Part shown: positions 39,001 to 42,000 of the stretch, piece after piece | How positions within the stretch are numbered: position 1 is the stretch's first letter | How the letters are laid out: each line of letters begins with the position of its first letter | IMG/VR virus record: IMGVR_UViG_2877962823_000010 | Direction: 5' to 3' (one strand) | From: a virus | Lineage: Duplodnaviria; Heunggongvirae; Uroviricota; Caudoviricetes | Length of the DNA: 64,000 bases | Position numbers: made by a program

Positions 39001-42000
39001 TGCAGTGATCTCCTGTGCTCGGTTACTCATCTCGTAAAAATCACCACCCACGCCTTCAGCAGTGGACTCATCAAAAATAATGCATTCATCAGAGACGGCA
39101 TTAAGCGTACCGGTTCGCAGTTCTTTCGCCTTAGCCGGATATTTCGCGCAAATTTTGCCGTGCTCTGAGATATGCAGGCGCTGCACCGTACCTGAACGGA
39201 ATGAGGTTGCCACCTGGATACTCGAGCCGTGACCAAACAGGATATAGCCACCGCTGGCACCGCTACGACGTTCAACGATGGTGAATGAGGCTCTCAGCCA
39301 GTCAGGGAGATGATCAAACGGTACAGCAATTTTTGTGCGGAAAATTTCACTGGCAGCCTGTTTATCCTGAGCGACGATCCCGCATTTGAGATGCGGAATG
39401 AATAATGCCTGGTCGAGAAGATAAATATCAATGGCTGTGGAAAATCCCAGCTGGCGCGCTTTCAGGATAATATTTTTATTGTGCATGCTCCGGAACAACT
39501 GGCGCTGCGCCGGTCGCATTCTGAAGGTGACCAGTTCACCTTTTTCGTTCTGTATTTTGTAGAGATGATTGAGCCGCCACCAGGGATTGCTCAGTTTAGT
39601 CATGATGAACAGACGTTGTTCAGCCTCGGTCATTTCTGACGGCTCATCACATCGCGGTTCATTCTTCCGGAATGTCATCCAGTCTCCCCGAATTACTCAT
39701 TTCATGCAGCGATGACACGATGTCACTGACAGGCGTAACAACGCCCCGACGCTGGTTGGTCAGAATATCGGTTTCAGCTCTGAGTTTATCTCTGGCGGCG
39801 TTGATTCTTTCCCGGTCAGCACGAAGTTTTGGTGCTGTCTCAGCCAGGACGTCCAGCGTCAGCAATGAGCGTTCAATTGACTCGATACGGGCAATATTCC
39901 GGTCAAGGGCCTGTTCAGCTTTGAGTATTTTGTCGTAAAGAGCAACACGGTTTCCACGTCAGTTGCCTCTTCCAGGTCGGCGAACATCCCTTTAAGTGCC
40001 TTAGTTACTGAAAGTGCGCGGGCCCGGGTGAACACCAGTTCATCGAACAGCACCATGTCGGACGCATCATCCATGAGGTTATCTGCCTCAAGATACTTCG
40101 CATATCCACGGTGTCTTACGGCGTGGGTGTTTCGCTGAGAAAAAGCGTTTGAAGGTGGTAAAAGTCGGGAACCACGAATCCGTTTCGTTTCTGCCGAATT
40201 TGCGCAGTTTTTTTCAGAGTTTTTTGCACATTTTTCATCGCCGGAACCCGCGTCATTGCAGGGTTCTTCATCTGAGATGTCATGATCGATTTCATGATCG
40301 GTTTTATGATCAATTTCATGATCGATTTTGCCCATTTTTATACGGGTTCTGGCGGTGTTGTAATTAATCTTTTTCTTCCGGCACCAGTCCAGTAATGTTA
40401 TTCCCGTTTCGGCATGTTCGCGTCGGAATGCCTGCTCCAGCTTTTTCCAGTCCAGCTTTGCCATGTCACGTTCTGACGTCCTGTGTTAAAAACTGATGCA
40501 TAATGACCGCTGTGATTTTTCAGATTTCACACAGCAGCACCATATTTGATCGATATTTGCACAATGCGGTTGTTTTATCCGGTTTCTTCCACCACCGCAC
40601 CGGACAGGCGGCTTCGCGGGAAATCGCTCCCATCTCGTGAAAAATGAGAAAACCCGGTGTGCATCGTTTTTGATTATCCCCGCACACTCCCGCAGAGAAG
40701 TTCCCCGTCAGGGCTGTGGACATAGTTAATCCGGGAATACAATGACGATTCATCGCACCTGACATACATTAATAAATATTAACAATATGAAATTTCAACT
40801 CATTGTTTAGGGTTTGTTTAATTTTCTACACATACGATTCTGCGAACTTCAAAAAGCATCGGGAATAACACCATGAAAAAAATGCTACTCGCTACTGCGC
40901 TGGCCCTGCTTATTACAGGATGTGCTCAACAGACGTTTACTGTTCAAAACAAACAGACAGCAGTAGCACCAAAGGAAACCATCACCCATCATTTCTTCGT
41001 TTCTGGAATTGGGCAGAAGAAAACTGTCGATGCAGCCAAAATTTGTGGCGGCACAGAAAATGTTGTTAAAACAGAAACCCAGCAAACATTCGTAAATGGA
41101 TTGCTCGGTTTTATTACTTTAGGCATTTATACTCCGCTGGAAGCGCGGGTGTATTGCTCACAATAATTGCATGAGTTGCCCATCGATATGGGCAACTCTA
41201 TCTGCACTGCTCATTAATATACTTCTGGGTTCCTTCCAGTTGTTTTTGCATAGTGATCAGCCTCTCTCTGAGGATGAAATAATCCCGTTCAGCGGTGTCT
41301 GCCAGTCGGGGGCCGGTTGCATTATCCACGCCGGAGGTGCCGGTGGCTTCACGCACGGTACCGGAGCAGGTGGCGTTGATCCGCAGGCGCTTACGACCAG
41401 CGGCAACATCAGCACGCAGAGTTTCATTTTCAGCTCTCGCATCGGCTAACTCCCTCGAGTATTTTGCATCGAGCGCAGCAACATCACGCTGGCGCACCTG
41501 CATGTCAGTAATGGTGGCATTCGCCTGTTCCAGCTCTCTGGCTTTTTTATCGCGCTGCGCTTTGTAGGTGAGCGCGTTGTCACGGTAATGGTTTGTTGCC
41601 AGCCACAGCGCACCATAGCCAACCGCCAGGACAATAATCACCACACACAGAACACGGTTCATCTCTCTTTCACCCCACCAGTCCCGATAACGTCAGGACT
41701 CGCCAGGCGGTGGAAAAGAAAATGGCAACCAGCATGACTAAAAATGAAATGCCGACAAGTACACAGAGGCTCTTCACCAGCGTTATGAGTTTATCTGATA
41801 TCATTAGCCACCCCATCAATCCGCCTTTGTTATTTTCCCTTTGCCTGTATCAGCCAGGACAAAATCAATCAGCATATTCGCTTCATTTACCAGCGTACGG
41901 ATTTTTGATACATGCGCGGCTTTAACCTGTTTCCACTCATTCAGCCCGGTAGCAAACACACTGGCAATGTTTTTATCCCGTTTCATGTCAGCACAAGCCT

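Follow-up and report, generated by a model that had tools for sequence, protein, structure and literature searches.

A one-base contraction, probably a sequence error, splits the small terminase gene of a defective 933W-type prophage that carries a candidate pac array

The small terminase subunit gene (terS) of the virus record IMGVR_UViG_2877962823_000010 (Caudoviricetes) raises the question of whether its broken reading frame reflects biology or the assembly of the sequence, and whether the short tandem repeat inside the same gene serves the protein or the DNA. The window, i.e., the whole stretch analysed, is 64,000 nucleotides (nt) long. The frameshift is present in the sequence but is ordinary: a homopolymer has contracted by one base in a well-known gene of a prophage that is defective, and a sequence error is the probable cause. 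The repeat is considered here as a candidate part of the array at which the terminase would recognise the packaging initiation (pac) site.

The gene lies at positions 39659-40464 on the minus strand and is the terS of a 933W-type phage (L0112 of 933W, 268 amino acids (aa); PHROG 370). L0112 is annotated as 'putative small subunit terminase' and its counterpart in Sp5, H0127, as 'small subunit terminase'; the protein is identical to WP_001086069.1. The window copy shares with L0112 and H0127 the order lysis-bor-terS-terL-portal, and terS stands directly upstream of terL and overlaps it, an order common to 933W, Escherichia coli strain 111 and the homologue loci. The two pieces of the gene cover positions 1-195 (E=2e-76) and 185-284 (E=3e-43) of the PHROG 370 'terminase small subunit' profile, which bears out the small terminase identity proposed in the first-pass annotation, and an intact homologue spans positions 1-284 of 284 (E=5e-125). 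The homologues examined have an uninterrupted open reading frame (ORF) of about 265-300 aa, whereas the window copy consists of a 201-aa ORF and a 99-aa frame. A Pfam scan of the intact TerS and of both fragments gave no family over threshold, and a sequence search of the PDB chains with TerS returned nothing meaningful.

The two-frame arrangement described earlier is indeed there. The 5' ORF starts with an ATG at 40464 and runs for 201 codons to a stop at 39859-39861, ending in ...DVETVLLFTTKYSKLNRPLTGILPVSSQLNAHC*, while the second frame extends over 99 aa, from 39958 down to its stop at 39659-39661, and ends in ...SGRLDDIPEE*; the two overlap over about 95 nt. With window positions 39600-40520 (921 nt) as the megablast query, 222 phage records and 429 E. 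coli records were matched, most of them Stx1- or Stx2-converting phages or O157:H7 prophages. Identity is 99.9% in the best matches, which extend over 922 bases against the 921 of the query. Compared with 933W (AF125520) and E. coli ATCC 43894, the 921 nt contain one gap and are otherwise identical. At this gap the references read GAAACCCGTG and the window reads GAAACCGTG, such that a CCC on the coding strand has become CC (GG at 39949-39950 on the plus strand). Adding back the C yields the 268-aa protein of 933W L0112 and WP_001086069.1. Hence, a single-base indel does split one protein, as had been suggested, and one full-length product is restored, although its length is 268 aa rather than the estimated 265. 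Alignment to intact TerS homologues, the check proposed for placing the indel, put it in the CCC run; it had been sought in the T-run at 39943-39945, which is 4-7 nt away from the actual site.

The arrangement of two ORFs could also be functional in itself, through programmed ribosomal frameshifting or through the synthesis of two separate polypeptides. The overlap of about 95 nt between the frames is all that speaks for this, and the idea deserves practically no credence. The homologues are all single ORFs of about 265-300 aa, among the listed matches out of 379 protein hits, among the 79 unique genes compared and at all of the 933W-type IMG/VR loci. These single-ORF homologues come from E. 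coli, Shigella, Citrobacter, Salmonella, Serratia, Yersinia, Pectobacterium, Dickeya and Aeromonas. Conservation of the two-ORF layout among homologues, which the first-pass annotation had named as the observation that would overturn a simple indel, was thus looked for in the 79 unique genes and the listed proteins, and every one of them has a single ORF. Further, there is no slippery heptamer at the junction (GAA-ACC-GTG), and exactly one base separates the window from functional phages. Programmed frameshifting was therefore excluded on the grounds of the single-ORF homologues and the missing slippery site.

The frameshifted allele appears to be private to this record. A 100%-identical match to it was found in none of 50,697 phage records and none of 5,426 complete E. 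coli genomes. Likewise, neither a collection of about 15 billion proteins nor its contig index contains the exact 201-aa product. The same index lists the intact 268-aa protein on at least 1000 contigs.

The closest record to the window is that of E. coli strain 111 from cattle (NZ_CP028685.1), which has the same deletion mediated by an insertion sequence (IS) and the same tandem dimer of the prophage, and in which terS is intact in both tandem copies. When positions 1-58157 of the window were aligned with copy 2 of strain 111, no substitutions and two differences were found. In each case a G/C homopolymer of the window is one base shorter, with C7 in place of C8 at 29007-29013 and GG in place of GGG at 39949-39950, and at both sites 933W carries the longer run (C8 and GGG). 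PGAP places the C7 run between genes, while the original annotation of 933W has the 5' end of L0123 there. The two copies of strain 111 themselves differ by a C6/C7 run, which indicates that such homopolymer differences do arise in these assemblies. This last site corresponds to about 25785 of the window and reads C7 in the window and in copy 2 of strain 111, and C6 in copy 1; in copy 1, the truncated gene beside the IS is additionally annotated as 'frameshifted'.

In mutation-accumulation data of E. coli, base substitutions are about 10 times commoner than small indels, and three-base runs are poor slippage sites; where nearly identical strains of E. coli have truly diverged, most of the changes are substitutions. 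The residual errors of long-read assemblies, on the other hand, are overwhelmingly homopolymer indels. The occurrence of two homopolymer contractions with zero substitutions in 58 kb hence favours a consensus error, and it is rather likely that the missing base is an error of the consensus or the assembly and not biology. The missing C would then be a homopolymer contraction introduced during assembly. Some points weigh against an error. Among the internal repeats of the window, 7.3 kb in all, the copies never disagree by an indel, which speaks against a grossly error-prone assembly; a three-base run is no classic hotspot of sequencing error either; and a prophage lacking Q and the late promoter is under no selection for terS, so that decay is plausible in principle.

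The rest of the prophage has several defects. The window comprises the end of copy 1 and all of copy 2, in which this terS lies, of a head-to-tail tandem prophage of about 57.4 kb in wrbA, followed by the 3' part of wrbA. Positions 1-6029 are repeated at 57429-63457 with one mismatch, near the junction, and 63457-64000, the right end, is the 3' part of wrbA, the integration site of 933W. The structural region is almost entirely 933W: between 27303 and 44385, a span of 17 kb, the two sequences are set apart by a single substitution and two gaps of one base each. This segment is bordered by two copies of IS1203/IS629, at 25993-27302 and 44386-45695, which are one mismatch apart. The former splits the L0124 homologue, L0124 being a virion or tail gene of 933W. 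The alignment blocks flanking it overlap by 3 bp (933W 41936-41938), which is consistent with a target-site duplication. The latter truncates the homologue of L0105 (DUF6645) and on its other side abuts a truncated gene with an ORF6N domain (flanks about 44100-46420). Relative to 933W, the deletion beside this second IS has removed roi, ninG, Q, pR', the tRNAs and stx2AB. The loss of the block from Q to stx2AB makes the prophage a stx-negative remnant of a Stx2-type phage, and without Q and pR' the late operon, including terS, is not normally expressible. In other O157 genomes (PA20, AR-0428 and RV06), the match is 100% only up to the end of the IS at 44386-45695. The ead/Ea22-like gene at about 7730-8630 has a one-base deletion relative to 933W, from CAAACG to CAACG near 7934, and is annotated as 'frameshifted' in both copies of strain 111; this change is shared with strain 111, unlike that in terS.

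These defects speak for the alternative that the deletion is a genuine and recent inactivating mutation, i.e., the pseudogenisation of terS in a decaying prophage. The prophage was already defective, with two IS1203 insertions, with Q, pR' and stx2AB lost and with an ead/Ea22-like gene whose frameshift strain 111 shares, and hence terS is not under selection; the internal repeats of the window, as noted, are free of indel noise. If real, the change would be a private, very recent and selectively neutral mutation in a prophage unable to express its late genes. However, two homopolymer contractions beside 0 substitutions in 58 kb would be an improbable product of mutation but fit the usual pattern of consensus error, no other record or protein collection searched contains the allele, and both tandem copies of strain 111 are intact. 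A genuine mutation is accordingly held to be unlikely. The two alternatives that had been offered at the outset, an inactivating mutation and a homopolymer sequencing error, are thus the two left standing. The suggestion that a mutation would fit the other defects was right insofar as the prophage is defective, but the evidence leans to error over decay.

The consequence of the shift for the protein can be judged from an AlphaFold model of TerS, which was built on an alignment of 20 sequences. Its N-terminal domain has three helices (6-20, 24-31 and 35-41). A disordered region (residues 45-125; predicted confidence, pLDDT, below 50) leads to a helical hairpin of residues 129-166 and 170-238 (pLDDT above 90) and then to a short C-terminal helix. 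The frameshift follows residue 172, at the turn between the two long helices of the model. Translated as written, the product would have neither the second long helix nor the C-terminal tail and hence be non-functional, should the deletion be real. A Foldseek search of the model against the PDB returned only generic coiled-coil hairpins, all with E above 0.1, and assigned no structural family. In short, 933W L0112 differs from the window copy in that the latter is one C short, is split into two ORFs and resides in a prophage that is deleted for Q and stx, disrupted by IS elements and tandemly duplicated. The frameshift thus matters for annotation only, where the label of a probable sequence error or of a private pseudogene would be appropriate. 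It reveals nothing new on the biology of Stx phages, and this prophage cannot make particles alone. The features of the region are listed in Table 1.

Table 1. Features of the terS region in the window (position 1 is the first letter of the stretch)
Feature	Position	Strand	Remarks
5' ORF of terS, 201 codons	39859..40464	-	Residues 1-172 authentic TerS (helix-turn-helix, disordered linker, first long helix), then 29 out-of-frame residues and a premature stop
3' part of terS, other frame	39659..39949	-	Residues 173-268: second long helix, C-terminal helix, acidic tail ...GRLDDIPEE, stop codon
Frameshift site	39949..39950	-	CC, against CCC in 933W, strain 111 and all other matches; T172 ACC, then R173 CGT
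Codons 1-45, predicted three-helix helix-turn-helix DNA-binding domain	40330..40464	-	Recognition helix ...NYNTARTRIKMGK; helices 6-20, 24-31, 35-41; possible remote homology to the P1 PacA N-terminus
12-nt repeat, 4.4 copies (AAATCGATCATG)	40276..40328	-	Encodes IDHE/IDHK/TDHE/IDHD; candidate pac recognition array 1
Second, degenerate 12-nt array (AAAAATGTGCAA / AAAACTCTGAAA / AAAACTGCGCAA)	40199..40235	-	TGTGCA 40225-40230, TGCGCA 40201-40206
Large terminase gene, 568 aa	37972..39678	-	ATG within the last 20 nt of terS; own GGAG Shine-Dalgarno sequence

The repeat in the same gene is found by Tandem Repeats Finder with a period of 12 and 4.4 copies at 40276-40328, and it encodes IDHEIDHKTDHEIDHDI. 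Within it lie four (C/T)GATCA hexamers, each with a Dam GATC site, at 40319-40324, 40307-40312, 40295-40300 and 40283-40288 (terS nt 141-182), and the array is the densest cluster of GATC in the whole 933W genome as well as in the window. The TGTGCA and TGCGCA of the second array are of the hexamer type that is dominant in other members of the family. Copy numbers of 3, 4, 5 and 7 units were seen across the genes compared, the 3-, 5- and 7-unit variants being rare; for example, a 264-aa variant of TerS is one unit shorter. The region was found in 387 E. coli records, 350 of which are at least 99% identical and 17 of which fall in the 90-95% band; the three records of this band among the matches listed are each 12 nt shorter. 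The repeat is therefore variable in length, as the first-pass annotation had anticipated, but is better read as part of an array of hexamers at the level of the DNA, a candidate pac site, than as a variable peptide tract. A phase-variable contingency locus was ruled out, as the 12-nt unit keeps the frame and the length is mostly invariant.

What such an array may do is suggested by phage P1. In P1, the 161-bp pac site lies inside pacA and has seven TGATCA/G hexamers with Dam sites, and its recognition and cleavage have been proposed to depend on the methylation state of the hexamers (PMC10028697). The P1 record places these hexamers at pacA nt 194-233 and 324-380, on either side of the IHF site and of the mapped cuts at nt 276-285. 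The 933W type resembles P1 in having a hexamer array within the small terminase gene just downstream of the helix-turn-helix segment (terS nt 141-182), in hexamers that contain GATC, and in the similar peptides that these encode (IIDHSNDQHAGDH in P1; IDHEIDHKTDHEIDH in 933W, with its IDHEIDHK tract). The N-termini of TerS and PacA align by BLASTP with 27% identity over 45 aa (E=0.001) and by hhalign with a probability of 62% (E=8e-5). Reciprocal profile searches link PacA to PHROG 370 at 2e-4 and 933W TerS to the PacA family PHROG 1711 at 2e-6 to 3e-5. On these alignments, the N-terminal domains of the two proteins appear to be remotely homologous, over 45-100 residues only. We infer, at about even odds, that the repeat is part of the pac recognition array of 933W-like headful phages, in which three to seven hexamers would serve as binding sites for the helix-turn-helix domains of a TerS ring.

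The likeness to P1 has its limits. PacA is 397 aa long and has an unrelated C-terminal part, unlike 933W TerS. P1 has two clusters of GATC hexamers (HEX4 and HEX3) around the IHF site and the mapped cut, whereas in the 933W type the second cluster is TGYGCA and not GATC. A scan of the terS region for the IHF consensus gave no match, but the same scan also missed the annotated IHF site of P1. The idea of a universal residue-to-base recognition code was ruled out as well, for the PacA of P1 has an ARRYL helix together with TGATCA hexamers.

Recognition of pac DNA by small terminases has been described as unclear and controversial (PMC9611059), and the DNA-binding domains of model phages, when isolated, have little preference for particular sequences (PMC4737164). 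The pac site of P22 is also inside its TerS gene, gene 3 (PMC9611059), and in SPP1 direct repeats at the start of the TerS gene are candidate binding sites for the helix-turn-helix, while the isolated DNA-binding domain of SF6 has no sequence preference for the pac repeats (PMC4737164). However, the TerS proteins of P22 and of SPP1/SF6 belong to families different from that of the 933W type, and the P22 pac is a single asymmetric site of 22 bp, unlike the hexamer array of the 933W type. The terminases of the 933W type have been classed with those of headful packagers (PMC6029569). A literature search found no described pac site of 933W-like or Stx phages and no TGCGCA arrays in terminase genes, which does not disprove that such descriptions exist elsewhere.

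The arrays are not confined to 933W. In every aligned divergent homologue, residues 46 to about 105 form a hypervariable linker of low complexity, and the DNA of this linker (terS nt about 130-310) always bears an array of short hexamers on the coding strand. Among the 79 unique genes, the type of hexamer tracks the recognition helix of the helix-turn-helix with no exception. In type A, a helix with ARR(Y/H)(I/L)K goes with TGCGCA(A), with 2-7 copies of GCGCAA; in type B, AKRYIT (Pectobacterium and Brenneria) goes with TTCGCAA in four copies; and in type C, ART(R/Q)IK (the 933W type and one Salmonella phage) goes with (C/T)GATCA in 3-7 copies at 12-nt spacing. The arrays of TGCGCA and TTCGCAA (loci L009-L035 and L073-L115) occur in prophages of E. 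coli, Salmonella, Citrobacter, Yersinia, Serratia, Brenneria, Pectobacterium and Aeromonas.

The Salmonella gene of type C can be set beside a type-A neighbour. The two are 91% identical over residues 1-45 and differ in the recognition helix by D36N, R40T and Y41Q, and the array of the former resembles a type-A array in which the central CG has been swapped for AT (AAAGTGATCAAAAAAGTGATCAAA). Between the type-C repeats of 933W and of the Salmonella phage the encoded peptide changes (IDHE against SDQK), but GATCA and its 12-nt phasing do not.

The rival explanation is that the tract is a slippage-prone repeat that encodes a flexible linker rich in His and Asp and has no function at the level of the DNA. 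This explanation is given somewhat less than an even chance. The residues in question (45-125) are predicted to be disordered with a pLDDT below 50, and the copy number changes in frame. The observations on reading frame and composition are harder to reconcile with it. In homologues, the corresponding hexamers (TGCGCA and TTCGCAA) fall in two or three reading frames inside one gene. In type A, for example, they are read as GCG CAA (AQ), as CTG/GTG CGC AAA ((L/V)RK) and as TGC GCA AAA (CAK), and in type B as TCG CAA (SQ) and ATT CGC AAA (IRK). The density of TGCGCA is 25.1 per kb in the 240-nt segment against 0.34 per kb in the rest of the same loci, a 74-fold enrichment, and 49 of the 49 unique type-A loci have 4-7 copies of TGCGCA. 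When the genes were recoded synonymously, with the protein and the local codon usage held fixed, the counts of hexamers exceeded those of the recodings in 15 of the 15 representatives (p 0.0002-0.03). Between species, third codon positions are conserved at 0.92 within the hexamers and at 0.60 elsewhere in the linker (Mann-Whitney p=7.5e-11).

For the GATCA type, to which the window belongs, the same recoding test was not significant (p=0.18-0.31), and this result is in keeping with a repeat that encodes a linker; the test is without power here because GAT-CAx nearly forces the motif. The retention of GATCA and of the 12-nt phasing under differing peptides (IDHE and SDQK) argues against a repeat with no function in the DNA, and so does P1, which has the same layout and in which the function has been established experimentally.

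Several considerations nevertheless temper the case for a role of the array in pac recognition. The alignment of low-complexity DNA favours the pairing of hexamers with one another, and tandem duplication by descent would beat the synonymous null just as selection would. The second cluster of 933W is of a different hexamer type. Finally, the helix-turn-helix and the array are adjacent, so that recombination would move both together, a point that equally suits the linker explanation.

If the array does act in pac recognition, the recognition helices and the hexamers within the genes would make up a natural series of specificity switches for the study of how TerS recognises DNA, since the joint change of helix and array spans prophages of E. 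coli, Salmonella, Citrobacter, Pectobacterium, Yersinia, Serratia and Aeromonas. In that case, too, the intact array of a defective prophage such as this one could be used by a co-resident helper phage of the 933W type. Phages of this type carry Shiga toxin, and the packaging initiation site sets which neighbouring host DNA is mobilisable.

Elsewhere in the window, the minus strand at 10483-18903 holds an ORF of 2806 aa, the homologue of 933W L0134, which has an LPD38 domain (RefSeq) and few substitutions relative to 933W.

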